Source: an uncultured virus (IMG/VR IMGVR_UViG_3300042486_001633) (lineage: Duplodnaviria > Heunggongvirae > Uroviricota > Caudoviricetes). Taken from it: 64,000 bases of DNA. Where the stretch lies: the IMG/VR virus record IMGVR_UViG_3300042486_001633; one strand, given 5' to 3'. Below are positions 1-22,649 of the stretch, in pieces. The translations under genes and the position numbers were made by a program. Below the pieces are notes generated by a model that had not been told where the DNA came from, ran no database searches, and saw only the letters and a program-made list of their open reading frames with translations. Positions within the stretch are counted from its first letter, which is position 1. Each line of letters starts with the position of its first letter.

Positions 1-8
1 CTAACTAA

Positions 9-101
9 ATATAACAAGGTATATGTGAAATACCTCATAAAGTTTCTACTAAATTTTAAAGTTCTGTGGTAAGGTACTTCACATATACCCAACCGTTATA
101 C
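9..101 (+). repeat. attC-like site 0
   Basis: ATATAAC 9-15; arms GGTATATGTGAAATACCT / AGGTACTTCACATATACC (1 mismatch); CAACC-GTTATAC 95-101. Confidence 0.85.
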
Positions 102-153
102 ACAATACTACATCATACGTTCTAATTAAGTTATGTGTAAAAACTTTTTAAAA

Positions 154-312
154 TTAATTACTCAAAGACAAACATTTTTGTAAAACTGATTTCATCAATT
201 TTAATGTTTCATCATCAAATAACGAACCTCTTGAATTAACTTTACTTTCATAATCTAATTTTATTAATTCTTTAATTTCCCTAATTAATTCAGTTCTTTC
301 TTGTTGTGTCAT
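154..312 (-). CDS. Cassette 1 ORF b, 52 aa hypothetical (MTQQERTELIREIKELIKLDY...)
   Basis: Read by hand, below ORF-track cutoff; ATG at 312, TAA at 154-156, directly downstream of 317..502. Confidence 0.65.
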   Translation of the reverse strand: MTQQERTELIREIKELIKLDYESKVNSRGSLFDDETLKLMKSVLQKCLSLSN

Positions 313-316
313 AATT

Positions 317-502
317 TTATTTTTTAAATTTTAATTCTTCTTCAATAATCATCACCATATCATCAAATGAAATTCCCCTTTCATCCGCTCTTTGTTGAAT
401 ATACTCTTCACTAAGATGAATATAATTCGCTTTTGGTTTATCATTTTTACTAATTTCATTTGATGCTTTTAGTAATTTTTCTATAATTTGTTTTTGTTCC
501 AT
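317..502 (-). CDS. Cassette 1 ORF a, hypothetical
   Basis: ORF track; lies between attC0 and attC1. Confidence 0.7.
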   Translation of the reverse strand: MEQKQIIEKLLKASNEISKNDKPKANYIHLSEEYIQQRADERGISFDDMVMIIEEELKFKK

Positions 503-565
503 ATTTTTTTAAAAAGTTTTTATTTGTATTTCAAATCAACACCCTACCTTATTAATCCGTAATGT

Positions 566-619
566 GTATAACAACAAATATATTGCATTAAAACGACAAT
601 ATATTTGCAACCGTTAGGC
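566..619 (+). repeat. attC-like site 1 (short, 54 bp)
   Basis: GTATAAC, arms CAAATATATTG / CAATATATTTG, CAACC-GTTAGGC. Confidence 0.85.
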
Positions 620-629
620 GTAATAAATT

Positions 630-779
630 TTACTGCCATTCGTCAAAGTTTTTATAATAGTTCTCCGCATCTTTCTTTGTCCATTTTATTTTGGTTGCTG
701 CATCAATGTCCTTTTTAATTTGTCTGTCATCTGCTATCATAAACAGTATAACTATTCCAAAAAATATTAGTAGTCCCAT
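630..779 (-). CDS. Cassette 2 ORF, 49 aa with N-terminal hydrophobic segment (MGLLIFFGIVILFMIADD...)
   Basis: Read by hand; fills the cassette between attC1 and attC2. Confidence 0.65.
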   Translation of the reverse strand: MGLLIFFGIVILFMIADDRQIKKDIDAATKIKWTKKDAENYYKNFDEWQ

Positions 780-798
780 AATCGTAAAATTTACATAC

Positions 799-928
799 GC
801 CTAACATTGCATAACCAAAAGCGGGGCGTATATCCGTCATTCAGCTATTGTACTACCAATTTACTTTGTGCCGTTGGTTAGGGTGGTTGCACTTAATCCC
901 CGCCTTCGGTTATACCTGTCCGTTATAA
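799..928 (+). repeat. attC-like site 2
   Basis: GCCTAAC, arms ATAACCAAAAGCGGGG / CCCCGCCTTCGGTTAT, GTTATAA at 922. Confidence 0.85.
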
Positions 929-950
929 GTAATAAAACAAAAATTATGGA

Positions 951-1145
951 TTATTTAATAAACCCACTATGTTTTAAAAACTCACGCATTGCATCAACAA
1001 CTTCTTTGTCGTTTTCAATTAATTTACCTTTCACAAAAATATCACCATTCTCTTTTAATAAGATTATTGCTTCATTTTCACTTTTACCTAAATCAAATCT
1101 AATTGTGTTAGGTTCTAATTCACTTTTTAATTCTAAATTTTCCAT
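951..1145 (-). CDS. Cassette 3 ORF, hypothetical
   Basis: ORF track; fills cassette. Confidence 0.75.
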   Translation of the reverse strand: MENLELKSELEPNTIRFDLGKSENEAIILLKENGDIFVKGKLIENDKEVVDAMREFLKHSGFIK

Positions 1146-1185
1146 AATATTACTTTTTTATTTGTATAATTTTTGTTTTACATAC

Positions 1186-1239
1186 TTATAACAAAGTGTA
1201 AAAAACATTAAAACGATTTTTTACACTCCACCATTAGTG
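1186..1239 (+). repeat. attC-like site 3 (short; core GTT changed to ATT)
   Basis: TTATAAC, arms AGTGTAAAAAA / TTTTTTACACT, same CATTAAAACGA loop as site 1, ends CCACC-ATTAGTG. Confidence 0.8.
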
Positions 1240-1246
1240 GCAAGTG

Positions 1247-1459
1247 CTACATCACCACTTCTTCACGACATTTTGTTCCATCAAAATAACATAAGTTTTT
1301 TTGTGCTTCTTCTAATGTAGAAAAACTATCTGTTGTTGAAACATCATTATTCATCCAAGCATCTACCCACCACCAAAAAAACAAGAAGTGTCGTTGTTGT
1401 ATTGTAAATTCTACTCTACCATCGGGCATTGTTCTTTCAATTATTCTTACTTTTTTCAT
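1247..1459 (-). CDS. Cassette 4 ORF, hypothetical
   Basis: ORF track; fills cassette. Confidence 0.75.
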   Translation of the reverse strand: MKKVRIIERTMPDGRVEFTIQQRHFLFFWWWVDAWMNNDVSTTDSFSTLEEAQKNLCYFDGTKCREEVVM

Positions 1460-1483
1460 TTTCGTTTAATTTACCGCACCAGC

Positions 1484-1586
1484 CACTAACAGCGGTTTGG
1501 TGCTATTATTTTGCCTATAAATTTTATCTAAGGATTGAAATGTCTGCAAGGCAAAATAACAGACACCAAGCCGCATAACGTTAGGC
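1484..1586 (+). repeat. attC-like site 4
   Basis: CACTAAC, arms GCGGTTTGGTG..TTATTTTGCCT / AGGCAAAATAA..CACCAAGCCGC, GTTAGGC at 1580. Confidence 0.85.
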
Positions 1587-1591
1587 ACAAT

Positions 1592-1864
1592 TTAAGACTG
1601 TCCAAATCTACCTTTGTCTATATAAATCAACAAAGTGTCTTGATATGTTCCCATATTAGGTCTTACCATTACTGATAGTCCTCGTTCAATTATTATATTT
1701 ACTATCTCACTTTGCTTTTCAACAGAATAATCAAATTCAGAGTTATGTTCAAAGTAAGGTATTAAATCCCGTTCTTTCCAATAAGCTACTACTATTTTTT
1801 TCATAAGAATAAAAACTGTGCCTAACAACGTATATAAGAGATACGCCAATAAGCGGTTATACAT
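1592..1864 (-). CDS. Cassette 5 ORF, hypothetical (alternative start ATG 1804)
   Basis: ORF track; upstream ATG lies inside the attC5 loop. Confidence 0.7.
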   Translation of the reverse strand: MYNRLLAYLLYTLLGTVFILMKKIVVAYWKERDLIPYFEHNSEFDYSVEKQSEIVNIIIERGLSVMVRPNMGTYQDTLLIYIDKGRFGQS

Positions 1865-1913
1865 TTATTTAAGTTTATCGGTGGCGTACCTCTCATATAC
1901 GCAACCGTTATAG
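1820..1913 (+). repeat. attC-like site 5
   Basis: GCCTAAC, arms CGTATATAAGAGATACGCCA / TGGCGTACCTCTCATATACG, CAACC-GTTATAG. Confidence 0.85.
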
Positions 1914-1919
1914 CCAATG

Positions 1920-2189
1920 CTACTTATTGTACCAAACAACGTGTGTTGCATCTAATTGGGGTGTCGAAAAAACTTCATCACTACTTTTAAGTCCATCCTT
2001 CACCCAATATCCGTTACCATCAAAATTACAGAAGCAACCGTCTTTTACTGCTTGTTTCCATTCTTCAACCGTGTAAATATCATCATCCCAATCTTGGTCA
2101 AGTTTTTTCGTGTATCTATCCGCACTACTGCTAACAGCAAGTATATTCAATTGCTCATTGTCTTGCTTATTTTTATCTTTGTTTTCCAT
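1920..2189 (-). CDS. Cassette 6 ORF, hypothetical; starts inside attC6 loop
   Basis: ORF track. Confidence 0.75.
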   Translation of the reverse strand: MENKDKNKQDNEQLNILAVSSSADRYTKKLDQDWDDDIYTVEEWKQAVKDGCFCNFDGNGYWVKDGLKSSDEVFSTPQLDATHVVWYNK

Positions 2190-2260
2190 ATCTACTTTTA
2201 TTTGTTAATTAGTATTTGTTTTTCAAAATCGCAACTAAATATACTTGCGAAACGTTATAT
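2129..2260 (+). repeat. attC-like site 6
   Basis: TGCTAAC, arms GCAAGTATATT..TTGC / GCAA..AATATACTTGC, GAAAC-GTTATAT. Confidence 0.85.
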
Positions 2261-2261
2261 G

Positions 2262-2456
2262 CTATGCTGTGAAACCTGACTTAGAAAGTGCATCATCAAC
2301 CATGTCAAAAACCTTTTCAGGAATGTGTGCGGTCATGTGTTTTCTAACTTCAATCAAAGTCTTAGCAAGTAATTCAATCGTTTCTTTTTGTGCTTTATCA
2401 CGAACAAAATCGTATTCTGCACTTTCTACTGTTTTTGGGAAAGTTCCTCTTGTCAT
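2262..2456 (-). CDS. Cassette 7 ORF, hypothetical
   Basis: ORF track; fills cassette. Confidence 0.75.
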   Translation of the reverse strand: MTRGTFPKTVESAEYDFVRDKAQKETIELLAKTLIEVRKHMTAHIPEKVFDMVDDALSKSGFTA

Positions 2457-2482
2457 TTTAATTTAGATTTGAGAAGCACAGC

Positions 2483-2614
2483 ATATAACAACACATTGCC
2501 AAAAGTGGCGGTTTAGTGCTAATATCAACTGTTGTGCTTCGGTTTAACATTCGTTTTTATATCAATTTTAGTGCTTCGATTTCGCCACCTTCGGCAATCT
2601 GCAAAACGTTATAA
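2483..2614 (+). repeat. attC-like site 7
   Basis: ATATAAC, arms ATTGCCAAAAGTGGCG / CGCCACCTTCGGCAAT, CAAAAC-GTTATAA. Confidence 0.85.
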
Positions 2615-2625
2615 GCAAATAAAAA

Positions 2626-2865
2626 TTACTCACTTTTCGTTTCATCAACAACTTTTTGGTTTCTAATTTCGCCTTCCAACTCCATCATTTTCATAAAGCA
2701 ATCTCTTAAATGCGAGTGCATCTTACCTAACTCAAATCCGTAAACAACATCATCTTTTTCGGAGTTGCATAAATCTCTAACTAAATCCGCATTTAGTTCA
2801 AACATTCTTTTGTAATGCTCAATTTGTTCTAATTGTTCTTGTGTAATCAAATATTTTCGTTCCAT
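2626..2865 (-). CDS. Cassette 8 ORF, hypothetical
   Basis: ORF track; fills cassette. Confidence 0.75.
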   Translation of the reverse strand: MERKYLITQEQLEQIEHYKRMFELNADLVRDLCNSEKDDVVYGFELGKMHSHLRDCFMKMMELEGEIRNQKVVDETKSE

Positions 2866-2885
2866 AATCCGTAATTTTTATCAGC

Positions 2886-2954
2886 TTATAACAGCGTATA
2901 TACAAGATACGCCTACAAGCATTTGTTTATAATTTAAAGTTTCGTTAAGGCGTA
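2886..2954 (+). repeat. attC-like site 8, truncated right arm
   Basis: Left arm resembles site 5 (TAAC-AGCGTATATACAAGATACGCC) but the right arm stops after AGGCGTA. Confidence 0.7.
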
Positions 2955-3269
2955 ATGCTGACGAAGGAACTCGACAATGGTTTTGCTATCGACTTGTTTA
3001 GCACCAGCCTTTATTGCCTTATCAATCATTGCACCTTTTACATCGTAATGTGGCTGATTTTTATTTCGCTTGTTTTGAAACCAGCATTTGTTTAACCCAA
3101 TACTTTGAGCAAATGAATGAAGATTTGGTATAGTATCAGCCACTAAATGACACCAACCATTTTTCGGAAAATCAATAAGCACTACACCTAACACTGCATA
3201 CCCGACAATGGGGGCTGACGTGCTATTTTCGGCATTTGTGCTATTATCAAAGTTCATTTCTAAATTCAT
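2934..3269 (-). CDS. Cassette 9 ORF, DUF4031-like protein; starts inside attC9 loop
   Basis: WCHLVAD..LHSFA..IGL..WFQ..PHYDV pattern typical of DUF4031. Confidence 0.75.
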   Translation of the reverse strand: MNLEMNFDNSTNAENSTSAPIVGYAVLGVVLIDFPKNGWCHLVADTIPNLHSFAQSIGLNKCWFQNKRNKNQPHYDVKGAMIDKAIKAGAKQVDSKTIVEFLRQHYALTKL

Positions 3270-3316
3270 CGGTTTTGCTTTTAATTCCCCACTGCGGGTA
3301 TGCTTTTACGTTATAG
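3186..3316 (+). repeat. attC-like site 9
   Basis: ACCTAAC, arms GCATACCCG.CAATGGGG / CCCCACTGCGGGTATGC, GTTATAG at 3310. Confidence 0.85.
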
Positions 3317-3337
3317 GTAATAAAATTTACTGCCATC

Positions 3338-3658
3338 CTACTTCCAATCAGCATTTGGTTGATTAAATTCGGGGCGTAAATCGGGGCTTGAATGTGCCAC
3401 ATTACCTTCATATTCTTTTTTCAATTCGTCTTGTTCTTCCGCAAGCACTCTGTAATTATACATTGTTGATGGTCTGCCTTCAATTCCCACCATCGTATAA
3501 TTAAAGTGGTCTTTAGGTAAGTGCTTGCTAAATTCTACCTTGTTAATAGTTGCCAATCCTCCTTCAAAATCATCTTCTCCACGATACACATAGTAAGATG
3601 ATGGCACATAAATTTTGTCCCCGATTTTCGGTTCTTTGATTTTAGTTTTGTCTTTCAT
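3338..3658 (-). CDS. Cassette 10 ORF, hypothetical
   Basis: ORF track; flanked by a perfect 21 bp inverted repeat (3310-3330 / 3664-3684). Confidence 0.8.
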   Translation of the reverse strand: MKDKTKIKEPKIGDKIYVPSSYYVYRGEDDFEGGLATINKVEFSKHLPKDHFNYTMVGIEGRPSTMYNYRVLAEEQDELKKEYEGNVAHSSPDLRPEFNQPNADWK

Positions 3659-3677
3659 AATCCGTAAATTTTATTAC

Positions 3678-3769
3678 CTATAACAAGGGCTATACAAAAC
3701 CCCACATCAACAGCAGTGGTTAATAATTAAGTTCATCTATGTGGGGCTTCGCATAGCCATGAGTTATAA
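3678..3769 (+). repeat. attC-like site 10 (last in array)
   Basis: CTATAAC, arms GGCTATACAAAACCCCACAT / ATGTGGGGCTTCGCATAGCC, GTTATAA at 3763. Confidence 0.8.
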
Positions 3770-3814
3770 CCAGATTTTCTAAAGATATTATACTAAAATT
3801 TTAATAAATAATAA

Positions 3815-3899
3815 AGACCGGCGGACTTAAATGTCCCACATTAGGACCGGTTATAGTTTAGGCTATAAGAAAACGTCGACCTCGCTAGTCGACGTTTTC
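3815..3899 (+). ncRNA. Candidate small structured RNA
   Basis: Late-type motif ATAAATAA at 3804-3811 followed by three consecutive stem-loops and no ORF. Confidence 0.35.
3869..3899. terminator. Probable bidirectional intrinsic terminator
   Basis: GAAAACGTCGAC-ctcgcta-GTCGACGTTTTC perfect 12 bp stem just after the stop of 3905..4642. Confidence 0.75.
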
Positions 3900-3904
3900 G
3901 CTTC

Positions 3905-4642
3905 CTATCGACCTGCGTTAAGTTTGTGTTTTACTGCAAGCTCTCGAATAACTGCAGTTTTTGCATAGCATACCGTTCTCAAGATGAAGCTAGTAATCTT
4001 AGCATATCTACGATCGTCTCTGGATCCCCAGGAAGAATAGCATTCTATTTCATTAAGACAATTTTGTATGGCTGACTTATTTCCCTCTATTGCACTCCTG
4101 TATTCTCGGCTGAACTTCTGAAGACAATACTTGACCATTCGAAAATCTGGTACAACTGATGTGTAGCCATGGCCGTCTTCAGTCCTCTTCCAGTATTCCA
4201 ACTTATAACTAAATCTTCGAGGCTGATACTGTACTTCGACTGGATACGGGTGTCCTTTTTCTTTTGGGACAAAGACTATTTTCCACTTACCGATCGTAAT
4301 CTTTTTGGTTCGGGCTTTAATTGCAGCTTTACCTTCTTGATAATAATGGTTCCAAGAATTAAGCGCATACCTCATGCCGCTCCTACTACATTTCTCAATA
4401 ATAGTGTATGCAACAGCCCACTTAATTTGTTCAGGTTTATTACGTATGAACATATCACCGTCCTCAATCCATACTGCATCGAGATTATTGGCCTCACAAT
4501 ATTCATAAGTACACTGATAGCCTTCCTTGAAGGAAGGTGTGCCGTTTGGGTCGGACACATGTTCACCTAGATCTTCATATCGATCTTTATGGGTCACGAC
4601 CAGTTCGTGACTACAACATGGGCAAAATAGGCTAGTTTTCAT
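3905..4642 (-). CDS. Hypothetical protein with N-terminal Cys cluster
   Basis: 245 aa ORF, CPCC and CxxxxC; own promoter motif upstream. Confidence 0.8.
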   Translation of the reverse strand: MKTSLFCPCCSHELVVTHKDRYEDLGEHVSDPNGTPSFKEGYQCTYEYCEANNLDAVWIEDGDMFIRNKPEQIKWAVAYTIIEKCSRSGMRYALNSWNHYYQEGKAAIKARTKKITIGKWKIVFVPKEKGHPYPVEVQYQPRRFSYKLEYWKRTEDGHGYTSVVPDFRMVKYCLQKFSREYRSAIEGNKSAIQNCLNEIECYSSWGSRDDRRYAKITSFILRTVCYAKTAVIRELAVKHKLNAGR

Positions 4643-4692
4643 ATTTAATATAAATTATCATAACTTAATAATACTACAAGTTTTGATAAAAT

Positions 4693-4720
4693 AAAAAAGG
4701 ATCTCAAAAAGAGATCCTTT
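4693..4720 (-). terminator. Intrinsic terminator
   Basis: AAAGGATCTC-aaaaa-GAGATCCTTT with T-run on the minus strand after 4742..5497. Confidence 0.8.
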
Positions 4721-4741
4721 AGCAAGAGCCTGACGTTAAAT

Positions 4742-5497
4742 TTAGAATTGAGTGCCGCAGCTTGGACAGAACTTCCAATTTGCATGTTTGATACGAGTTC
4801 CGCAGTTACTACAGTAATTGCGAATGTCTGATGCCTCGACTGGTTTGCTAGATTCTGGTAAGATCTGTAGTTCAATTGATTTTGAACACCAACTAGAATA
4901 ATTAGACTGATCACTGCTAAACTGTTGGCTTGACATTTCTCCTCGTTCTGCACGACCAGTCTCAAGTGAACCGGCTGGCTGCAAATTAGAATTAGCAAAC
5001 GAAGCATTTGCTCCAATTGAACCAGTAAGATCAGCTGAAGTGTTAGAATAAAGACAGTTAACTGTAGTGCCTCCAAATACTGGAGGATTCCAGTACTGTG
5101 GTCTGGTTGTGTAAACATATGTTGAGATAGACGGATAGTGAATCGTCTGTTCATCATAGAATTCTACACGTAGTTTTCCATTATCCACAATTGCGCCCTT
5201 CGCTTCAGTTGAATCCTCAACTTCGTAGGTTTCAAAGAGGAATTTTTTTGACTCATCAAGCCAACGTTCTAAGAAAACTCTTTGACCTGGACGAAGCACA
5301 ATTCCAGATGAGGAAATTGATACTCCATTCAAATAGATCTTTGCAAGAATTTTAATGGATTTTGGATTGAATAATTCTATCTCAAAATGAGTCTTGTCCT
5401 TAAGATAGATTTTATCGCCATAATGTTTAAGACGATTTCGGTTTACTGCTATATTCGCAGTGGGTTGTTGCCAACCATTGAGTGTTGTGTGGTACAT
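4742..5497 (-). CDS. Hypothetical protein with C-terminal zinc ribbon
   Basis: CSNCG...KFCPSCG at C terminus. Confidence 0.85.
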   Translation of the reverse strand: MYHTTLNGWQQPTANIAVNRNRLKHYGDKIYLKDKTHFEIELFNPKSIKILAKIYLNGVSISSSGIVLRPGQRVFLERWLDESKKFLFETYEVEDSTEAKGAIVDNGKLRVEFYDEQTIHYPSISTYVYTTRPQYWNPPVFGGTTVNCLYSNTSADLTGSIGANASFANSNLQPAGSLETGRAERGEMSSQQFSSDQSNYSSWCSKSIELQILPESSKPVEASDIRNYCSNCGTRIKHANWKFCPSCGTQF

Positions 5498-5608
5498 AGT
5501 TTACCTGATTATTTTTAATTAAGCAAACGTCTTTATGGCGATGACACCATTCTAAAGCCACTGGGACTCGACGCCGACTAGAGCGTCAGGCTCTTATAGT
5601 TATATACT

Positions 5609-5920
5609 CTAAATGGTAAAAGAGGTTTCACTGACTGGGATTACTTGATAATTAGGAGATCCCATTTGCTTGTCGTACTTTAGGATAAAGTTAAAAAGCA
5701 AAGAAATTTCACAAAAGTCGCTATAGTCAATCGTCTTGCCCATTTTTTCAGAAAGCTTGATCTCGTTTCCATTATCGAGTGCAGACAAGATTAATTTATT
5801 AGGATAAGTCCAGTGGTCTGCACTAGAATAATGCAATGAATATTCAGTACCATTATCAGTATGATCTACGAAAATATCATATTCATGTTTAGTATTTTCA
5901 AATATTTTAAATTCTTTCAT
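5609..5920 (-). CDS. Hypothetical protein
   Basis: ORF track, in a tightly packed minus-strand run. Confidence 0.75.
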   Translation of the reverse strand: MKEFKIFENTKHEYDIFVDHTDNGTEYSLHYSSADHWTYPNKLILSALDNGNEIKLSEKMGKTIDYSDFCEISLLFNFILKYDKQMGSPNYQVIPVSETSFTI

Positions 5921-6071
5921 CTTTGTTTTTTAATAAATCATTTAATCGTTTAATTTCAGCGATTACATCATCGCCTAATTCAATTTTAGACATCATTGAT
6001 AAGTCTACCACTTGAGAGTATAATACATTGATTAGCTCTTGTTGTACTTTGATTGTTTCTTCTTTATTCAT
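5907..6071 (-). CDS. Hypothetical protein, 54 aa (MNKEETIKVQQELINVLYSQ...)
   Basis: Read by hand; fills the gap and overlaps both neighbours. Confidence 0.7.
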   Translation of the reverse strand: MNKEETIKVQQELINVLYSQVVDLSMMSKIELGDDVIAEIKRLNDLLKNKDERI

Positions 6072-6382
6072 TAGTTATTGATTTTAAAATTGGTAATAGG
6101 ATAATCAATTTCAATTTCCCAGCCTTTATGTCTTTGGTGAATGTAGTAAAGTAAATTTTGAACTTTATCTGCATGCTTCATGTCTATTAATTTAAAGGTC
6201 AGTTCTTTGACGTACTTACCATTGTCGATTGAATATTCAATTGAGCTTAAAGTTGCAACACTATCTTTTTCATAAAAAATAGTAATGTGATCAGAATGAA
6301 ATCCAGTAGTATCTATTTTTTTAAGGGTTGAACACCCAATTAATAGAGCTGAGCTCAATATTAATGTTAATAATTTATTCAT
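6071..6382 (-). CDS. Putative lipoprotein
   Basis: Signal peptide with LIGC lipobox. Confidence 0.7.
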   Translation of the reverse strand: MNKLLTLILSSALLIGCSTLKKIDTTGFHSDHITIFYEKDSVATLSSIEYSIDNGKYVKELTFKLIDMKHADKVQNLLYYIHQRHKGWEIEIDYPITNFKINN

Positions 6383-6686
6383 TTTTATTTTGTTTTCTTT
6401 CGTTTATTATTTCAATTAGTGCATTGCCGTGACATAATTTCGGAGCACACCAACAACCTAGTGTTTTTCCTTCTAGTTCATGTAAATGATCTAATAGCCA
6501 TTTACCTTCTCCTTCTAGAATCCACTCCTTGTATTTCTGAACAGCTTCTTCTCGACTCGCAACAATATATTGTGCTGCAGTCTTTTTATCAGCAATATGT
6601 GTGAAAGGATTTCCCCATTTAGATCCATATCCTCTCCCTATGTATACATCATATGGTTCTTTTTTAATATGAACGACTTTATTCAT
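6375..6686 (-). CDS. DUF4326 family protein
   Basis: DVYIGR..SKWGNPF..L.GK.LGCWCAPKLCHG. Confidence 0.85.
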   Translation of the reverse strand: MNKVVHIKKEPYDVYIGRGYGSKWGNPFTHIADKKTAAQYIVASREEAVQKYKEWILEGEGKWLLDHLHELEGKTLGCWCAPKLCHGNALIEIINERKQNKNE

Positions 6687-6717
6687 CGATTTGAATTAAT
6701 TTTTATTGTTTTCATAG

Positions 6718-6960
6718 TTATCTTGAATTTTTTAATACTTCATCGATTGCAGTTCGAAGATCTTTAAGGTCTTCTCGTGTCATGCAAGGTATCATTAATC
6801 GATTGTATTGCATATTTCTTCGCTCCGACCGACTGTCACTATCAGGATAAAGATTATTATCTTCAATCGATATATAACCAACGTTACCCGTTAACCCAAT
6901 CGATATAATATGTCCGTTTGAGTACTGTTGTCTTTGTGCAAGTTTAGGTAATTTTGCCAT
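6718..6960 (-). CDS. Hypothetical protein
   Basis: ORF track. Confidence 0.7.
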   Translation of the reverse strand: MAKLPKLAQRQQYSNGHIISIGLTGNVGYISIEDNNLYPDSDSRSERRNMQYNRLMIPCMTREDLKDLRTAIDEVLKNSR

Positions 6961-6971
6961 GCGTCTTTATT

Positions 6972-7244
6972 TTACACAAAAAATGTTGATAACCATAAAC
7001 CTAAGACTCCGCCAATTGCTCCGCCAATTGCATAGCCTGCCCATTGATGTAGCGAGTCTTCGCTCTTTGCAATCTTACGAACTACAAAAAAGTTGAACGA
7101 TGCAATAATAAAATCAGTAATAACTGTACCGGGATAATTTACCCATGCAACAAACCGATAGTTAATAACGAGTAACAAATACAAAAGTAATTGTATTGCA
7201 AAAAAGAGGAAAAATTCCTTGAGTTTAATTTTATTGACCTTCAT
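6972..7244 (-). CDS. Small membrane protein
   Basis: Three hydrophobic segments, YAIGGAIG. Confidence 0.75.
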   Translation of the reverse strand: MKVNKIKLKEFFLFFAIQLLLYLLLVINYRFVAWVNYPGTVITDFIIASFNFFVVRKIAKSEDSLHQWAGYAIGGAIGGVLGLWLSTFFV

Positions 7245-7680
7245 ATTGTAACCTTTCTTCGGTGTTTAATAAACCTTTGCCGTATTTTTGAATTCTATTG
7301 TTATATCTTTCCTTTACATAATCGTGTATCCGTAAAGAATTGCCCTCATCGTCAATGCGTACAAATTTAATGTTGGTGTGCACAACGACATCCTGTTTAC
7401 CAGTATACACATTATGCTTGCGAACTTCAAGATAAACAGTAACTGAGGTAGTGCCAAATTCAAAAATATTACCATACACCTTAAGAATATTTCCTATTTT
7501 TACTGGGTGTTTGAAAATAAGTTCGTCAATTTTTAAAGTTACGACGCGTTGTGTATCGCAAATTTGGGCAACATAAGCAGCAGCTGCATCGTCGATAAGT
7601 GATAAGATAGTTCCGCCGAACATATTATCATGTACTCCAATATCGCTCTTCTTACAAATATAGGTTGTGATTAATTCCAT
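7231..7680 (-). CDS. Acyl-CoA thioesterase (hotdog fold)
   Basis: NMFGG.ILSLID.AA, F..PV.IG, G.TS. Confidence 0.85.
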   Translation of the reverse strand: MELITTYICKKSDIGVHDNMFGGTILSLIDDAAAAYVAQICDTQRVVTLKIDELIFKHPVKIGNILKVYGNIFEFGTTSVTVYLEVRKHNVYTGKQDVVVHTNIKFVRIDDEGNSLRIHDYVKERYNNRIQKYGKGLLNTEERLQYEGQ

Positions 7681-8324
7681 TAGCTTTGAATATTCGATTC
7701 GAATGATTTATTTTGTACGATTTGATTAAATGGTAGAACCACTCTGATATTATACTTGCCAGATTGATTATGGTTATAACTCATGTGCTGAATTATTTTT
7801 GCATAAAAGTTATCCATTTCCATGCCAGAGCCATCTGCCATATTAATAATATCATCAAATACTTTGCTCTTTACTGCATATGCGTGTAAACACACAATCT
7901 GATTTCTAAAAAATGGTTCAATTAGTCCGCCAAAATAGAGCACGTCCCAATCATGTAGAATTTCTTGATTTTGAGTAAGCAGTTGATTTGGATCTTGCAA
8001 AAAAGTAATATCGTCCTCTAAAATAAGAACTCTCTCATAACCTCGAGTTTTCGCTAATTCAATACACTTAAGCTGTGCAGCTTTACAGCCTAACTGACCT
8101 AGCCGGTATTTCATATCACCCTTTATAAAATTACGATATAAAGTAGGCGAAGGTAATTCAGTAAGTTGTACTCCTTCTACTCGTTCAAAATTTTTAATTC
8201 CAAACTGGTTAAACTGTGCAAGGATGCGCTCATTGCGGGCAACATCCTTACTCATATTGATATAAAAAATTCTATCGAAATAAGAGTCTAATGTTATTCT
8301 AGGATAGGTAAAATCAGCCATCAC
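7680..8324 (-). CDS. Glycosyltransferase family 25-like
   Basis: FYINM..D..R, GQLGC, LILEDD. Confidence 0.8.
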   Translation of the reverse strand: MMADFTYPRITLDSYFDRIFYINMSKDVARNERILAQFNQFGIKNFERVEGVQLTELPSPTLYRNFIKGDMKYRLGQLGCKAAQLKCIELAKTRGYERVLILEDDITFLQDPNQLLTQNQEILHDWDVLYFGGLIEPFFRNQIVCLHAYAVKSKVFDDIINMADGSGMEMDNFYAKIIQHMSYNHNQSGKYNIRVVLPFNQIVQNKSFESNIQS

Positions 8325-8555
8325 TTATAGCGAGAGCAAATTAATTTCTCTTTTCCAAATAAGTTCTTCGCCACACCAGATTTCAATAACTTTTTGATCA
8401 GTCTTCGCATGGTTAGCATACGCAGCGACATTTTTAATTTTATCATATACGCGTCGTTCTCCGTTGCTATGGACTAGAGTCACAACATCTCCTCCTGGAG
8501 TTAAGCTAAGATCGTTTTTTCTGTGTGGGTCGGTTACTATAATTTTTCTAGGCAT
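8325..8555 (-). CDS. Hypothetical protein
   Basis: ORF track. Confidence 0.75.
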   Translation of the reverse strand: MPRKIIVTDPHRKNDLSLTPGGDVVTLVHSNGERRVYDKIKNVAAYANHAKTDQKVIEIWCGEELIWKREINLLSL

Positions 8556-8565
8556 ATTGTTTGAA

Positions 8566-9054
8566 TTATTTTTTTACGGTATGTTCTATGTTAACTCGAA
8601 TACAAGTTTGAGGTTGGGCTTCATTCATTAAAAAATTATTAATGTATCCCATAATATTTGCAGAGCCGATTGGGTTTGCGGAATGAGTTACGACGATTGG
8701 GAAACGGACAATTGAATCTTTTTTTTCCGGTCTAGATTTTCCTGGCCATTCCGGATTAGTTGTATAAAATTGACGAACTAACCATCTAGCACTGTCCATG
8801 CCAGTGGATTCAGTAATATTTGCATAGTCCAGTTTATAGTGTGGACTTACATTAGTGAAGTATTCATGCATTGCCGAATCATCCAGATCGTGATCCAGGG
8901 AGATCATTTGAATATTTTCCAAGCCGAGTTCAACGACCTTTGATACTAATTCATCATGTGTTCTAACTACGATCCAGTCCTGATCCACAGGAGTTCTAAC
9001 ATCGTCTAAATATATTCTTTTTTTCATTATTGTAATAATACTATATTGAATCAT
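8566..9054 (-). CDS. Cyclic-phosphate-processing receiver-like domain protein
   Basis: YLDD.R, SLDHDL, TGMD, HSANP.G; true start probably the downstream MKKRIYLDD. Confidence 0.75.
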   Translation of the reverse strand: MIQYSIITIMKKRIYLDDVRTPVDQDWIVVRTHDELVSKVVELGLENIQMISLDHDLDDSAMHEYFTNVSPHYKLDYANITESTGMDSARWLVRQFYTTNPEWPGKSRPEKKDSIVRFPIVVTHSANPIGSANIMGYINNFLMNEAQPQTCIRVNIEHTVKK

Positions 9055-9083
9055 AATATTAAAATTTGGTGGCTACTTTATTG

Positions 9084-9091
9084 ATAAATAA
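9084..9091 (+). promoter_or_regulatory. Late-type promoter motif ATAAATAA (also 10838, 11606, 19635, 24868, 29256, 31041, 48179, 51936; minus strand 16910, 23654)
   Basis: Recurs shortly upstream of virion-type genes; resembles T4 late TATAAATA. Confidence 0.7.
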
Positions 9092-9110
9092 CTAAAAATA
9101 ACTTACTGAC

Positions 9111-9761
9111 ATGCCAGGAAGAATTCTAAACTTTTCAGAGTTTTTTGGTAAATATTCTAGTGATACTGAAAAGAACCTAGACGATTTTACTAATGCTGCA
9201 TCTAACTTCGAAGAAGGATTTGATGACGAAACATACAATCAAAATCAAATTGGACCAAATCGTCCAGTTGCTGGTGGAACTGAGGCAACACCTCCTCAAC
9301 CTGGTGAAACAGGTGCACCAAAATTTACATCACAACCTGATGCTGAAATGAATGCTCCAGAAGAGGAAGAATTAGAAGAGACTCCTGAAGAAGAGGCTAC
9401 TGAGACTCCGACAGAACAAGCTGCTGAAGAGACTGAAGAAGCACCTGAAGCTCCAGAAGAAGAGGAAGGAGATGAAACTCCTGAGCCAGAAATGGGAGCA
9501 AATCCTGAAGAAAGCAAAGAAGATGAAGAAAAAGTAGAAGAATCACGATTAGTAAAAGGATTTCACCAATTTATCTCAGAATCCTACTATGATGCTGATT
9601 ATTTAAGCGACGATTGGAACGAAGAGGAAGAAGATGAAGATTGGAAAGAAGATCGTTTTGATGATGGAGACGATACTGAAATTTACGACAAGCACGGATA
9701 CTGTGAAGACTGTGGAGAACCAAATGATGAGTTTGGATCAACTTGCGGTTGTAACATGTAA
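9111..9761 (+). CDS. Highly acidic putative head/core protein with C-terminal Cys motif
   Basis: Glu/Pro-rich, FSEF and FHQFISE motifs, CEDC..CGC. Confidence 0.75.
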   Translation: MPGRILNFSEFFGKYSSDTEKNLDDFTNAASNFEEGFDDETYNQNQIGPNRPVAGGTEATPPQPGETGAPKFTSQPDAEMNAPEEEELEETPEEEATETPTEQAAEETEEAPEAPEEEEGDETPEPEMGANPEESKEDEEKVEESRLVKGFHQFISESYYDADYLSDDWNEEEEDEDWKEDRFDDGDDTEIYDKHGYCEDCGEPNDEFGSTCGCNM

Positions 9762-9781
9762 AAACTACTAATTGTAAAGAG

Positions 9782-10375
9782 ATGACTGAAATTATAATTG
9801 CTTTCTTGACAGGTATATTGGGCCCAGTTGCGGTTCTACTAGTCAAGCATATACTAAACACTAGAAAAACTCCAGATCCTATTGCAGAAGCAGTAAACAA
9901 TGCAAATGTGATTAATGACGAGATTGAAAAGATTATGGAGGAGTTTACTCCAGACAGAGTATGGATTGCACAATTCCATAATGGCGGTCATTATTATCCA
10001 ACTGGTAAATCTATCCAAAAATTCAGCATCTTTTTTGAACAAGTAAAGCACGCTAAGGATACTACTCGCGATAATTTTCAAAATATCCCAGTAAACCTAT
10101 TTAGTAAATCATTTAGCCGAGTTTTAACTCATGATTACTTGGCTATCCCCGATTTTAAAGACGAGACAATTGCTACATATGGCTTAAAATATATTGCAGA
10201 AGAAAATGGAACTAAGAGTTCCTACATATTTGCAATCAGAACAGTTGAAAATCGACTAATTGGATTACTTGGAATTGACTATACTACTAGAAAAAAGACG
10301 CTAGACTCTGAAGATATTATTGAGCTACGTTTAGAAGCAACTAAACTTGGCGGAGTCCTAATGAGTCAATTATAA
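9782..10375 (+). CDS. Putative holin-like protein (N-terminal TM plus GAF-like domain)
   Basis: One TM then RVWIAQFHNG...IGLLGIDY; architecture like T4 holin T. Confidence 0.55.
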   Translation: MTEIIIAFLTGILGPVAVLLVKHILNTRKTPDPIAEAVNNANVINDEIEKIMEEFTPDRVWIAQFHNGGHYYPTGKSIQKFSIFFEQVKHAKDTTRDNFQNIPVNLFSKSFSRVLTHDYLAIPDFKDETIATYGLKYIAEENGTKSSYIFAIRTVENRLIGLLGIDYTTRKKTLDSEDIIELRLEATKLGGVLMSQL

Positions 10376-10524
10376 TGAAAAAGCTAGTAGAAAACTTCCT
10401 TGAATTTATTCAAACCGCTAAGGTTGCACAGGAACCTGAATCCTTCAGAATATACAGTGCAAATCCTAGAAAGAAATCTCGTAAATTAGCGATTGCTCGA
10501 TACGCAAAGAAGTGTAAAGGCTAG
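10375..10524 (+). CDS. Small basic protein, 49 aa (MKKLVENFLEFIQ...)
   Basis: Read by hand; TAATG coupling with the upstream gene. Confidence 0.6.
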   Translation: MKKLVENFLEFIQTAKVAQEPESFRIYSANPRKKSRKLAIARYAKKCKG

Positions 10525-10796
10525 TCCTCATCCTCGTCATCATCATACTGATCATCAAAATCGTCATTTATGAACTCTGGACTAGATATTGTACGAATAC
10601 CAGCGTCTTCCCAGTTAAGTAAGACATCATCTAATTCATCAGTAACCATCGTTAGAATCTGTATATTTTCCCTAACTGTGCCCTCGTTATAGGTCAGTAT
10701 TTTTACCTTGATTGCATCAAGTTTCTTCAATATTGTAGTTTCAAGTTCCTTTCGAACTGCCTGATACTTTTCGATTTGAGATTTATCCATTTCCAT
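10521..10796 (-). CDS. Hypothetical protein, acidic tail
   Basis: ORF track; AAAC-N18-TATAAT upstream. Confidence 0.75.
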   Translation of the reverse strand: MEMDKSQIEKYQAVRKELETTILKKLDAIKVKILTYNEGTVRENIQILTMVTDELDDVLLNWEDAGIRTISSPEFINDDFDDQYDDDEDED

Positions 10797-10883
10797 ATAT
10801 TACTTATTATATTACACAATCTGCGATTGGTTTCTAAATAAATAAACTAAAGAGTTTCTAACTTATTAAAATAACGAACAAGA

Positions 10884-11324
10884 ATGAAAAACTACAAAAA
10901 CCTTAGACGAATTTACGAGGACGATATGCAAGCAATTGCATCAACTGATGTTCAAGAACTTGGAATGCAACCTGAAATGACACCTGATCAAGAAATGCCA
11001 ATTGATTATCCAGCACAACAACTTGCACTTCCAGCAGAAGGTCAAACCTCTGCTGCTCCAGATCCAATGACAATGACGGTTGGAGATTTCTTAGGTAAAT
11101 GTAAGGAAGTTGACCCATTAATATGTATGGGAATCCAATCATTTATTGATAAAAATATGCATGTATTTAGTGCACCATCTCAACCGGCAGCAATGCCAGG
11201 AATGGAAGCAGAACCGGATTTAACTTTCTCAAATGCAGTTGCACCAGAAGGACAAATGGCTCCTGCTCCAGTACCAGCATTTTCGTTAGACCAATCACCT
11301 GAAACTTTAAATTTTCCAGGCTAA
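10884..11324 (+). CDS. Hypothetical late protein
   Basis: ORF track, late motif upstream. Confidence 0.75.
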   Translation: MKNYKNLRRIYEDDMQAIASTDVQELGMQPEMTPDQEMPIDYPAQQLALPAEGQTSAAPDPMTMTVGDFLGKCKEVDPLICMGIQSFIDKNMHVFSAPSQPAAMPGMEAEPDLTFSNAVAPEGQMAPAPVPAFSLDQSPETLNFPG

Positions 11325-11327
11325 TCA

Positions 11328-11609
11328 ATGGTAAGAAACTTTAATACTTATTTAGTTGAAGTAATGGGCGCAGACTCAATGGAGAGGGATCCAGCAGATA
11401 TTATACTTAGTCCAGATACTAAGAGGGCTAACGCAATGTCATTTTATGCTGGTTCATCTGGTACAATTCCAACGCATTGGAATAATTCTCCATTCTTGAC
11501 TGGCGGTAGACTAACTAGTGCATTTGGATTAAATCCAAGTAAAGCAAAGAAGAAGAGCGTGCTCTCTTACCACGAGTTCATAAAGACAACTAAAGGATTT
11601 TCAAAATAA
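11328..11609 (+). CDS. Hypothetical late protein
   Basis: ORF track. Confidence 0.75.
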   Translation: MVRNFNTYLVEVMGADSMERDPADIILSPDTKRANAMSFYAGSSGTIPTHWNNSPFLTGGRLTSAFGLNPSKAKKKSVLSYHEFIKTTKGFSK

Positions 11610-11628
11610 ATAATAAAAAGAAATTACA

Positions 11629-12003
11629 ATGGGATCACATATTGCAAGCTTTAAGAAATTCATGAAATCTGAAGAAAAGAAAGCAGAAGAGATTGGAGCT
11701 GCACCAATGGTCGACGAACAAGCAGCACCAGCTGCTCCAGGTGCAGGAGATAATATTGGCGGAACCTCTACTCCAGCGGCAACTCCTCCAGCTGCACCAG
11801 TAGTTGCAAGCGTTGAGGCAAACCCAGCAGTAATAGCAGCTCGTCAAGCAGCAGCTGCAGCAGTTGCAAATCGAGATAAAGTAGTTTCAGCAAAACAAGC
11901 AGAACTTGATAAACTCAAAACTGATCAAGACACTTTAGTAAATACTGCAAACACAAACTTAAATAAAGCTTTACAGGATGCTGGAAAAGCAACCGCCGCA
12001 TAA
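11629..12003 (+). CDS. Ala/Pro-rich hypothetical late protein
   Basis: ORF track, late motif upstream. Confidence 0.75.
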   Translation: MGSHIASFKKFMKSEEKKAEEIGAAPMVDEQAAPAAPGAGDNIGGTSTPAATPPAAPVVASVEANPAVIAARQAAAAAVANRDKVVSAKQAELDKLKTDQDTLVNTANTNLNKALQDAGKATAA

Positions 12004-12449
12004 TGGAAAAATTAGTAAAAACATATCAAGAGTTCATAAACGAAGCTACAAAAGAAGTAGTTTATCCTACTAATTTTAAAGGCCAAGTACAGAGTGCTCT
12101 AGCTGGAGTTTATACTTCGGTAATGGCAATCGCTCAGGAACTAGCAAATGAAAAGGCTGCTCGTAATCCTGCAAGATATGATGGTACAATTGAAGAAGTG
12201 GATATTACTAGAGCAATGAACCTTATTTTTCATAGCGATTGGAAAAAGAAATTAAAACAACAAGCATTAGGCCAGATGGTATACAAATCAATGGAACGTG
12301 CTGGTAAACAGGATAATGTAGTGGCGAAGAAAAATCAAAGAGCAATGGGTCGTATGTTAGGAGACAAAGACTTTAATCTTAATATTGATAAATCAAGCAC
12401 AAGATTTAGTGACGAACGTCAAGGAACAGGACCTGGATCAAATCAATAA
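12003..12449 (+). CDS. Putative internal head protein
   Basis: N terminus KTYQEFINE, nearly identical to T4 capsid-targeting sequence MKTYQEFIAE. Confidence 0.65.
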   Translation: MEKLVKTYQEFINEATKEVVYPTNFKGQVQSALAGVYTSVMAIAQELANEKAARNPARYDGTIEEVDITRAMNLIFHSDWKKKLKQQALGQMVYKSMERAGKQDNVVAKKNQRAMGRMLGDKDFNLNIDKSSTRFSDERQGTGPGSNQ

Positions 12450-12456
12450 TTAAACA

Positions 12457-13191
12457 ATGACTGAAAGAGAACTTATAGAAGACATTAATAATGAGATCAC
12501 CTTTTCTGGTGCACTTCCTTATTCTCTTCCGGAAAAAGAGATTAAACGTATTATCTTAAATGATTCAAGATATTTTTGGGATAACTGGAGACATGCAGTA
12601 GAAAGTAGATATATGTTACTTACTCCTGAAATCTTTAATAATCCTACCTTTAAGAAATTAAGACAGCTTCAATTACCAGATTGCGTACAGTTCGTAGTTG
12701 ATTTTAAAGAAGCAAAAGGAGGATCTATTTTTGCTACAATTGACCGAGATTTTGCCGAACAAAAATTTATTGGTTCTGAGATCTATTTGACTCCATTCAT
12801 TGGAGAAAGTATTATGTATAGAACAGTTATCTTTTCATTCCTTGATTTAACTAAGAGTATGATGATTGACTCTATTGCATACGACTACAATAAAAATACT
12901 AAAATGCTTGGAGTAATAGGTAGAACTCCAGCAACAAATGCAGTTATTCGAATCTATAAAAAACTTGAACAGGACAAATTGTTTGAAGACGAAGTTTTTC
13001 AACGCTATGTTCGTGCTCATGCTAAAGTTCGTTTAGCACACATGTTACAAACTTTTAACTATACTCTACCTGGAGACGTTACTGTAAATTATCAAAATAT
13101 CACGACTACTGCTGAAAAGGAGATGGAAGATGTTAAATTGATGATGAAAGGCGAAAACACTCCAGACTGGATGTACTTATACCATCAATAA
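12457..13191 (+). CDS. gp13: Neck protein, gp13-like
   Basis: C-terminal YVRAHAK..L...L..F.YTLPG.VTVN pattern of gp13. Confidence 0.65.
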   Translation: MTERELIEDINNEITFSGALPYSLPEKEIKRIILNDSRYFWDNWRHAVESRYMLLTPEIFNNPTFKKLRQLQLPDCVQFVVDFKEAKGGSIFATIDRDFAEQKFIGSEIYLTPFIGESIMYRTVIFSFLDLTKSMMIDSIAYDYNKNTKMLGVIGRTPATNAVIRIYKKLEQDKLFEDEVFQRYVRAHAKVRLAHMLQTFNYTLPGDVTVNYQNITTTAEKEMEDVKLMMKGENTPDWMYLYHQ

Positions 13192-13196
13192 TTAAT

Positions 13197-13574
13197 ATGG
13201 CACAACTTAGAGATTTTTATCTTAGACCTGAAACAGATCCTGCATTTCGACCAGAACAGTTAGAAGTGTATGATGAACTTGAATCGTGTCTACAACAAAT
13301 TAAGATGACTCTTTTTACTCAAAAGGGAGAAGTACTTGGCGAACCTGAATTTGGTTTAGAAGTAGAGAAATACTTATTTGAATTTACAATTGATCCTTTT
13401 GCTCTTACTAAAGAAGCAGGTGGTCAAATCACTAAATATGTTGGTGAAGCTCGCAAAAGAAATATTGGAGTTAGACCTGCATCATATAAAGATGATAGAG
13501 CTGGAAGAGACATTTTTGTACTCTTAATTGATATTCCAGAACTAAAGAATCCTCTTTCTATTTTCTACGATTAA
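13197..13574 (+). CDS. gp25: Baseplate wedge / sheath initiator, gp25-like
   Basis: QIKM.LFT.KGE.LGEPEFG..V..YLFE. Confidence 0.75.
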   Translation: MAQLRDFYLRPETDPAFRPEQLEVYDELESCLQQIKMTLFTQKGEVLGEPEFGLEVEKYLFEFTIDPFALTKEAGGQITKYVGEARKRNIGVRPASYKDDRAGRDIFVLLIDIPELKNPLSIFYD

Positions 13575-13687
13575 TCTATTGGGCCGAAACCACGTTCGCG
13601 GCATTTCATTCGTTCTGTCTCTACAAAAGAGATAAACTTCCATGTATTTTTACATGTTTTCTTAAGATAGGAAATAAATCTTTTCAT
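13571..13687 (-). CDS. Small ORF, 38 aa (MKRFISYLKKTCKNTW...)
   Basis: Read by hand, directly downstream of the portal gene. Confidence 0.45.
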   Translation of the reverse strand: MKRFISYLKKTCKNTWKFISFVETERMKCRERGFGPID

Positions 13688-13691
13688 GTTT

Positions 13692-15404: not shown

Positions 15405-15405
15405 A

Positions 15406-16026: not shown

Positions 16027-16046
16027 ACTAATAAACTTTAGATATT

Positions 16047-16547: not shown

Positions 16548-16564
16548 AGCTGGACGGGATTAGA

Positions 16565-16891: not shown

Positions 16892-16916
16892 TATTGCTCA
16901 ATATTTTTATTATTTA

Positions 16917-18059: not shown

Positions 18060-18064
18060 ATTTT

Positions 18065-19489: not shown

Positions 19490-19659
19490 ATAAGATCTTA
19501 CTTAAATTTTTAAAATGGTTTATTAATTGGAACTCCGGTAATAACAATCTGTTATCAAACTGACGACATTTGCTAATTTACTAAAAAAGTTAATTCTATT
19601 TTCCTAAGTAACTATACTAAGAAATCTTGAAAGAATAAATAATAAGAAAGAGGTTTTAG

Positions 19660-20277: not shown

Positions 20278-20282
20278 TAATT

Positions 20283-22635: not shown

Positions 22636-22649
22636 ATAGACTCATTTTT

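Follow-up and report, generated by a model that had tools for sequence, protein, structure and literature searches.

Integrons are the textbook device for capturing genes cassette by cassette, and the insertion in their integrase, IntI, is held to be essential for the recognition of folded attC sites. The array considered here, a series of small open reading frames (ORFs) separated by hairpins, occupies positions 1-3772 of a 64-kb stretch of DNA (64,000 nucleotides; IMG/VR record IMGVR_UViG_3300042486_001633) from an uncultured T4-like phage of lake water, and the whole of this stretch is referred to below as the window. Sites in the array were located by reading and by their TAAC/GTTA cores. 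With considerable confidence, the array is assigned to an integron-like gene-capture system of large phages, probably infecting Bacteroidota, of which the window would hold the integrase-distal part.

Related systems

The phage arrays resemble classical integrons in that imperfect palindromes with AAC/GTT cores separate units of one or two genes, which have complementary ends and appear to be exchanged at the core. In other phages, the array ends at a candidate non-hairpin docking site beside a recombinase of the Xer/IntI clade with a SAM_4 N-terminal domain. There are also differences: the recombinase of the phage arrays is only 266-268 aa long and is without the ~48-residue IntI insertion, the hairpin precedes the gene so that the folding strand is the coding strand, and the short phage sites feature an invariant 11-nt loop and carry the longer unpaired spacer on the 5' arm.

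Clusters of attC sites in phages have been published. Excerpts from Qi et al. 2023 (PMC9892861) report 17 such clusters, with 2-4 predicted sites per phage, and treat the sites as classical attC sites usable by the bacterial IntI1, for which assays were positive with five of six sites. The exception was P12002L_attC1, from a Polaribacter phage, which was the only one of the six to yield no IntI1 recombinants and was called by HattCI but not by the Infernal attC model. These clusters share with the present array the presence of phage-borne attC-like sites without a nearby IntI, and P12002L_attC1 agrees in core, spacer and loop (TCGTTTTAATG on the coding strand) with two window sites, S1 and S3, and likewise flanks minus-strand genes. 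The excerpted parts of that paper describe neither a dedicated phage recombinase nor an inverted cassette rule. A search of the literature, in which only Qi et al. 2023 and the rAID-1 preprint discussed next proved relevant, found no paper on a phage-borne cassette system with its own insertion-less recombinase.

A second comparison is offered by the rAID-1 arrays of gut Bacteroidales, which are described in excerpts from Ross et al. (bioRxiv 10.1101/471110) as having a XerD-family recombinase and intergenic repeats 'reminiscent of integrons', and are defined there as a XerD-like recombinase 5' of at least two co-directional AT-rich genes, with >44% identity to BF9343_RS08045. In both systems, a XerD-family tyrosine recombinase adjoins a long co-directional array of small AT-rich genes. 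However, the rAID-1 recombinase lies 5' of the genes whereas that of the phage arrays lies beyond their 3' end, and rAID-1 arrays are located on bacterial chromosomes or mobile elements and carry immunity genes. The two were compared by their descriptions.

The sites of dif modules are short double-stranded XerC/XerD sites, not folded hairpins. In Acinetobacter plasmids, modules bounded by such Xer-type sites move between replicons, as the phage units appear to do (PMC7399989), but they use the chromosomal Xer system of the host. Finally, the promoter/terminator stem-loop (PeSL) modules of T4-like phages are also stem-loop-linked small accessory genes that are gained and lost as modules (excerpts of PMC2839356 and PMC4122927). 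There the exchange is by homologous recombination between similar motifs (PMC4122927), whereas here a core of 4-5 nt, dissimilar hairpins and a unit-specific match between ends are found.

Hairpin sites of the array

Eleven TAAC...GTTA hairpin sites, one of them truncated, were found between positions 6 and 3772, all in a single orientation and with 10 units of one or two small ORFs between them. This confirms the description in an earlier note on the same DNA; S8 is truncated, and S3 has an altered core. On the plus strand, all sites share an asymmetric build, consisting of TAAC, 1-3 nt, an arm, a loop, the second arm, 4-6 nt and GTTA. The sites are as follows:

6-104, plus strand, S0: TAAC at 12 and GTTA at 95; long hairpin belonging to a cassette with its body left of the window; fold z -4.79
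563-622, plus strand, S1: short type with loop CATTAAAACGA; included in the covariation alignment
796-931, plus strand, S2
1183-1242, plus strand, S3: short type; right core ATTA, with A in place of G as first base
1481-1589, plus strand, S4: fold z -6.05
1817-1916, plus strand, S5: fold z -3.88
2126-2263, plus strand, S6: left arm and TAAC inside the 5' end of an ORF; arms paired at 11 of 12 positions
2480-2617, plus strand, S7
2883-2953, plus strand, S8: right arm and right core lost
3183-3319, plus strand, S9
3675-3772, plus strand, S10: final site before the phage backbone

Like attC sites, these are folding palindromes, with TAAC and GTTA cores in 10 of the 11 (S3 has ATTA, and S8 is without its right arm), and their cores match the RYYYAAC/GTTRRRY consensus only loosely. 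Adjacent sites are unlike in both sequence and length (48-126 nt from core to core), and even S1 and S3, which have the 11-nt loop in common, have different stems. When folded as single-stranded DNA, the minus strand gave z-scores of -0.97 to -6.05 over the 11 sites, with values of -1.99 or lower in eight, and outfolded the plus strand at every one. The extra unpaired bases lie in the 5' arm of this folding strand. A simple detector found nine sites on the plus strand of 1-3766 against three weak candidates on both strands of the other 60 kb; an earlier version of it, run on shuffled whole windows, returned 0-6 sites each. Rfam, which contains no attC model, gave no match anywhere in the window at gathering thresholds.

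Cassettes and their complementary ends

All ORFs of the array are on the minus strand and short, at 49-111 aa. A single one matches a Pfam family, DUF4031, and three more match PHROGs of unknown function. In the list below, the end match is the number of the 6 nt beyond the core at one end of a unit that agree with the reverse complement of the other end of the same unit.

96-613, minus strand, cassette 1: ORFs 154-312 (52 aa) and 317-502 (61 aa), with S1; end match 6/6
614-922, minus strand, cassette 2: ORF 630-779 (49 aa, hydrophobic N-terminus), with S2; end match 6/6
923-1233, minus strand, cassette 3: ORF 951-1145 (64 aa; PHROGs of unknown function), with S3
1234-1580, minus strand, cassette 4: ORF 1247-1459 (70 aa), with S4; end match 5/6
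1581-1907, minus strand, cassette 5: ORF 1592-1804 (70 aa from the ATG at 1804), with S5; end match 6/6
1908-2254, minus strand, cassette 6: ORF 1920-2189 (89 aa; PHROG 14149, residues 33-89 only), with S6; end match 1/6
2255-2608, minus strand, cassette 7: ORF 2262-2456 (64 aa), with S7; end match 6/6
2609-2946, minus strand, cassette 8: ORF 2626-2865 (79 aa), with the truncated S8
2934-3310, minus strand, cassette 9: DUF4031 ORF (Pfam E 2.9e-19) from 2934 to ~3182, listed as 2934-3269 and probably starting with GTG, with S9; fused to cassette 8 through the S8 deletion
3311-3763, minus strand, cassette 10: ORF 3338-3658 (106 aa), with S10; end match 6/6

The bases at one end of a unit pair with those at its own other end, and not with the neighboring hairpin arm, and this central claim of the earlier note is upheld by the scores: six of the 10 units match at 6/6 and two at 5/6, the remaining two matching at 1/6. 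Comparisons across the same site gave only 1-4 of 6, and among 111 non-adjacent pairings none reached 6 and five reached 5. The rule extends to the other phage arrays of IMG/VR, where 118 of 180 distinct units match at 5-6 of 6, compared with 5 of 180 same-site and 9 of 133 skip-one controls. Complementarity of this kind, which is that of integron cassettes, is expected if, as is proposed, recombination falls within the TAAC/GTTA core; the sequence data place the crossover in the core rather than at an exact phosphodiester bond.

Read on the plus strand, a cassette therefore runs from TTA and 6 nt through an antisense ORF to the complementary 6 nt, TAAC, the hairpin and a G. On the coding (minus) strand, the same unit begins with C, a spacer of 4-6 nt, the hairpin, a spacer of 1-3 nt, GTTA and 6 variable nt, followed by a short leader, one or two small ORFs, the reverse complement of the variable 6 nt, and TAA. 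In both cassettes that are shared with other phages (see below), the hairpin that travels is the one upstream of the ORF on the coding strand. The unit is thus a classical cassette with an inverted ORF: in classical cassettes, the ORF precedes attC on the top strand and the bottom strand is antisense to the gene, and neither holds here.

The distance from core to ATG is only 15-35 nt, which leaves little space for a separate promoter. By eye, a short leader, TTACGGATTATG or near-identical, can be seen just before the start codons of ORFs 3338-3658 and 2626-2865 and, with one base missing, of ORF 630-779; a related leader, TTACGGATTAAT, lies farther upstream of ORF 317-502.

Comparison with other phage contigs

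The comparison with other contigs supports the view that the window units are mobile cassettes that would be exchanged at the GTT/AAC core. The clearest case is window 601-926, comprising the S1 core, the 49-aa ORF and the S2 core, which is identical at 326 of 326 positions to 17517-17842 of a contig (L270, G009) from an otherwise unrelated phage, in which the neighbors are different. None of the other cassette ORFs of the window was found in G009, and against window 3770-23000 that phage has only a single match of 243 nt at 69% identity. Similarly, window 2607-2946 is 94.4% identical to 2796-3134 of L064, with a left boundary that falls exactly at the GTTA core of S7; L064 has a complete site at the position of the truncated S8. 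A copy of S3 and of the 35 nt on its left is present in L002 at 94.5% identity, and the match stops exactly at the right core.

The contig L002 (G005) is also the most informative at the edge of the array. From window 3763 on, its backbone is 82-99% identical to that of the window, mostly 91-94%, but to the left of the junction it carries a different array, consisting of two short sites, one small ORF and a four-gene block. A HAD_SAK_2 gene is present in that block. Cassette content thus differs between related phages; the outcome that the earlier note had named as counting against it was a fixed order and content. A third contig, L001 (G001), is 100% identical to window 3770-23000 over 19,231 bases and ends inside S10. 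Its sequence left of the S10 loop (L001 10890-10952) differs from that of the window, and the loop has two small changes; this alternative left half could be a variant last cassette, a loop insertion or an artefact of the contig end.

An all-vs-all comparison of 247 units produced only six pairs shared between loci, and is indecisive taken alone. Three of these pairs run through the right-hand site (in one case a long site) and one runs through a common short left-hand site, while one includes neither site and the last is a partial match at 66% identity that reaches neither boundary.

The array-linked recombinase and a candidate docking motif

In five other array-bearing phage contigs, a PF00589 protein is encoded directly beyond the last site:

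G002: recombinase at 107956-108762; last site ends at 107633
G003 (L266, a 464-kb phage): recombinase in two pieces at 13306-14732, covering residues 3-172 and 237-268, ~820 nt apart
G004: recombinase from 187473; last site ends at 187099
G007: last site ends at 244567
G009: array and recombinase in mirror-image arrangement

The gene in G003 is interrupted or decayed. More broadly, 12 of ~70 distinct contigs have this recombinase no more than 4 kb away from a short site. The gene is co-directional with the cassette ORFs and lies beyond their 3' end, which, in terms of site orientation, is the position of intI. In all five contigs, the start of the recombinase is preceded, at a distance of 40-80 nt, by TAnn(A/T)TATAT, which follows the TAAC that closes the last cassette. 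Judged by its position and conservation, TAAC-TAnn(A/T)TATAT is a candidate docking site without a hairpin, and would be the counterpart of attI.

The protein, which is 268 aa long in G002 and G004 and 266-268 aa in the family, has Phage_int_SAM_4 and Phage_integrase domains, and its alignment shows the catalytic R, K, HxxR, H and Y. Its best NCBIfam matches are XerA (184 bits, below the cut-off of 220) and XerD, and it falls well below the cut-offs of the integron-integrase models (151 against 265 bits for TIGR02249, and 104 against 435 for NF011946). Among PDB structures, the best match is XerA (4a8e), over the full length. IntI4 (2a3v) aligns only in two pieces, pairing query residues 21-180 and 210-267 with residues 18-181 and 259-316 and skipping ~48 IntI4 residues, from which it follows that the IntI insertion is absent. 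No IntI-type integrase, with the extra domain that binds extrahelical bases and lies between the conserved patches, was found, either as the array-linked protein of G002 and G004 or in the window. The recombinase family itself is abundant, with 5212 proteins at E <= 1e-20, the top 120 of which are 76-93% identical and 262-288 aa long.

Distribution of the site family

When IMG/VR was scanned with the pattern TAACAA-N11-CATTAAAACGA, more than 131 matches were obtained, a lower bound. Among the matches listed, 126 of 136 distinct ones have a stem that is complementary at 8 or more of 11 positions, and in 123 of these 126 it is followed by GTTA or GTTG. Arrays contain up to 26 sites in 20 kb. The short sites, with their invariant 11-nt loop, are strongly constrained as structures: in an alignment of 36 distinct sequences, 97.2% of cells are paired, compared with 31-43% in slid controls, and nine of the 11 stem pairs change on both sides, a level that none of 500 shuffles reached. 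Of the stem mismatches in 162 long-stem sites, read on the non-coding strand, 265 are A.C and 26 are G.T. Because these A.C mismatches are wobble pairs on the other strand, the coding strand would be the one selected to fold. The table in the excerpted PMC9892861 places the bottom strand of P12002L_attC1 on the coding strand, which agrees with this bias.

In a collection of species genomes, the stem is present in 60 of 123 pattern matches, nearly all of them from Bacteroidota (Flavobacteriia, Cytophagales, Saprospiraceae and Chitinophagales). These hairpins mostly occur once per locus in Bacteroidota chromosomes (L134, L136, L236 and others), those of cultured Flavobacteriia among them. The outer flanks of the solo hairpins are often complementary to each other, as expected of unrecombined sites. 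Their distribution suggests that the host of the phage belongs to the Bacteroidota. Five Flavobacteriia genomes with solo hairpins each encode a homologue of the recombinase (39-49% identity, in frames of 375-418 aa), and no sites were found within ~1.5 kb of the four of these homologues that were examined.

Two further groups of matches were set aside. The dense arrays found in genome bins (L207, L169 and L158) are on contigs of ~5 kb, and, as two of these bins carry the label Methanolobus, the contigs are probably phage DNA that was wrongly binned. Matches of the short site to ICP1 consist of 27 nt inside cas1 at E 0.4, and were taken as chance.

Interpretation and alternative explanations

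Under the integron-like reading, cassettes would be gained, lost and swapped through site-specific recombination within the TAAC/GTTA core. The likely catalyst, to judge from the sequences at array ends, would be the Xer/IntI-like tyrosine recombinase of 266-268 aa without the IntI insertion, acting on a substrate that is probably the folded coding strand (the bottom strand by attC convention), in single-stranded form and presumably by way of circular cassette intermediates. For the window phage, this enzyme might be encoded in cis to the left of the window or be supplied in trans by a co-infecting phage. The tiny ORFs would be accessory genes, such as those for host takeover or counter-defence. 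As two defining features of integrons, the IntI insertion and the orientation of the cassettes, are lacking, the array is best called integron-like rather than a classical integron. The cassette reading of the earlier note is accordingly retained for mobile units exchanged at the core, and given up in so far as it implied a classical integron.

Several observations weigh against this reading. No recombinase is encoded in the 64-kb window, the 60 kb to the right of the array included, and the motif TAAC-TAnn(A/T)TATAT is also absent from it. Given the absence of the motif, the array would be the integrase-distal part, with any recombinase encoded before position 1, on the left. Seven sites but no PF00589 match were found in G008, a complete phage, and no recombinase was found in G005, which is 26% complete, so arrays can exist without a linked enzyme. 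A 25-mer from the left flank of the G005 array was found in G005 only, and the protein encoded in that flank recurs in one distant contig with no sites and no recombinase. Two of the 10 window units, the S5-S6 unit and the one after the truncated S8, have ends that do not match. In the backbone just beyond the last core, on its right, two adjacent bases are not the same in the window (GTTATAACC) as in G005 (GTTATGCCC), a difference that is not expected from a strict G|TT crossover. Lastly, the wobble bias of the coding strand is also compatible with selection on mRNA hairpins.

A more specific proposal, to which even chances are given, is that these arrays constitute a separate, phage-borne class of integron, defined by an insertion-less Xer-like recombinase that would recombine hairpins folded from the coding strand. 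Under this proposal, the recombinase possibly reads the invariant loop rather than extrahelical bases. Cassettes, each with its own upstream hairpin, would pass between unrelated large phages that share Bacteroidota hosts, as is indicated by the 326-bp cassette that is identical in two different phages. Enzyme-less arrays, perhaps including that of the window, would be serviced in trans during co-infection, and the array would act as a fast-turnover shared bank of genes for host takeover or counter-defence.

Among the alternatives, the one that survives best, although it is unlikely, is that of a classical integron cassette cluster (CALIN), in which the sites would be attC sites recombined by the canonical IntI of the host or of another element. 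The resemblance of the cores to RYYYAAC/GTTRRRY and the complementary ends, which are an integron signature, are as this explanation predicts, as is the HattCI call for the same-family site of P12002L (excerpted PMC9892861). The window has 11 sites and no recombinase in the 60 kb to their right, and might hold a CALIN, a class defined by two or more attC sites, as scored by the attC model, without an integron integrase close by. However, P12002L_attC1 is precisely the site that IntI1 did not recombine and Infernal did not call, the array-linked recombinase is insertion-less and below the cut-offs of both integrase models, and the ORFs are inverted relative to classical cassettes. In addition, the extra unpaired bases are on the 5' arm here, compared with the 3' arm in the aadA7 bottom strand (PMC9892861 Table S3, as excerpted). 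The suggestion in the earlier note that the IntI of the host might serve as integrase is therefore improbable, given the failure of P12002L_attC1 with IntI1 and the insertion-less enzyme linked to these arrays.

It is quite unlikely that the hairpins are only RNA or transcription elements (terminators, processing signals or stabilising structures) of a polycistronic early region with immobile units. Such a role would account for the position of the hairpins in 5' leaders, for the wobble pairs on the coding strand, and for the solo hairpins with the same loop in Bacteroidota chromosomes. It leaves unexplained the complementarity of unit ends, the identical cassette cut at its cores in another phage, and the recombinase genes at array ends. 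A role as RNA can hold beside recombination, but not instead of it.

It is very unlikely that the units are shuffled as PeSL-like modules, in which promoter/terminator stem-loops would serve as patches for homologous recombination in a hyperplastic region of a T4-like phage, with no dedicated recombinase. The phage is T4-like, stem-loops just upstream of each gene do separate its small ORFs, and indels in regions of this kind have been attributed to PeSLs (PMC4122927, in excerpt). However, near-identical repeats of promoter and stem-loop, exchanged by homology, are not what is found: the exchange is at a core of 4-5 nt and not in long homologous stretches, and adjacent sites differ. Homologous recombination between direct repeats would create no unit-specific complementarity of ends, and in other phages arrays are closed by a tyrosine recombinase and a conserved docking motif.

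Backbone junction and phage context

The junction between array and backbone lies at 3763-3794, where GTTATAACC is followed by AGATTTTCTAAAG. The same junction is present in L001 (G001), L272 and L002 (G005). Two other assemblies break inside S10, and when metagenomes were scanned with a 25-mer from the junction, only two contigs were recovered, G005 and one starting within S10. An assembly chimera joining the phage to unrelated DNA at ~3.77 kb, which the earlier note had named as a possible refutation, merits practically no credence, since the junction recurs in three other contigs, 78% or more of the words sampled from window 1-5000 are present in each of 24 lake or freshwater metagenome runs, the lower GC of 1-3000 (0.28-0.34, below much of the window) is equalled elsewhere (0.27-0.30 at 40-45 kb), and breaks at S10 are expected of a polymorphic array of variable repeats.

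The T4-like context that the earlier note had recognized holds: the window encodes Portal_T4, a Gp23 capsid protein, a prohead protease, topoisomerase II, a primase and a B-family DNA polymerase. The capsid protein is 37% identical to its best GenBank relative, from a 462-kb uncultured phage, and 32-33% identical to those of Lak phages, while a megablast of window 1-8000 against GenBank phages returned no match. The 'jumbo' label in that note rests on two relatives, estimated to be 13% complete at 34 kb and 26% complete at 66 kb, which would put the genome at ~260 kb.

Some other features of the window can be noted. At 3850-3869, 80 nt beyond S10, GTTATAG and CTATAAG are separated by 6 nt, an arrangement that is conserved in L001, L002 and L272 and that resembles a right core and a left core brought face to face without an intervening cassette; it could be the relic of an empty junction, or chance. 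An ORF of 245 aa without a family match follows at 3905-4642; both the window and G001 have it, but it is missing cleanly from G005 (window segment 3943-4653), where the flanks are otherwise conserved. Two further observations concern window 16047-16547 and 18065-19489: the portal and primase genes have a TnsA-like endonuclease ORF between them, and the ORF of the B-family polymerase spans only Pfam positions 145-451 of 453, which may mean that this gene is split or interrupted. Two cREC_REC (cyclic-phosphate processing receiver) proteins and a HAD_SAK_1 protein are encoded at 8566-9054, 62270-62695 and 23690-24265; cREC_REC and HAD_SAK_1 are parts of 'Swiss Army Knife' RNA-repair sets. Finally, the part of the window with the lowest GC (0.27-0.30), at 38176-47100, contains about 11 minus-strand genes for sugar and nonulosonic-acid chemistry, including NeuB, two GT2 glycosyltransferases, a methyltransferase, a PhyH dioxygenase, a PglD-like acetyltransferase, a DegT aminotransferase, a GT29 sialyltransferase-like protein and a cytidylyltransferase.

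Significance

If the integron-like reading is correct, an insertion of the IntI type would be shown to be unnecessary for the capture of cassettes. The polymorphism of the arrays explains why assemblies of such phages break at them. The reading would also supply a concrete mechanism by which large lytic phages turn over small accessory genes in their variable regions, and would expose a channel of gene flow between unrelated phages, and perhaps also their Bacteroidota hosts.

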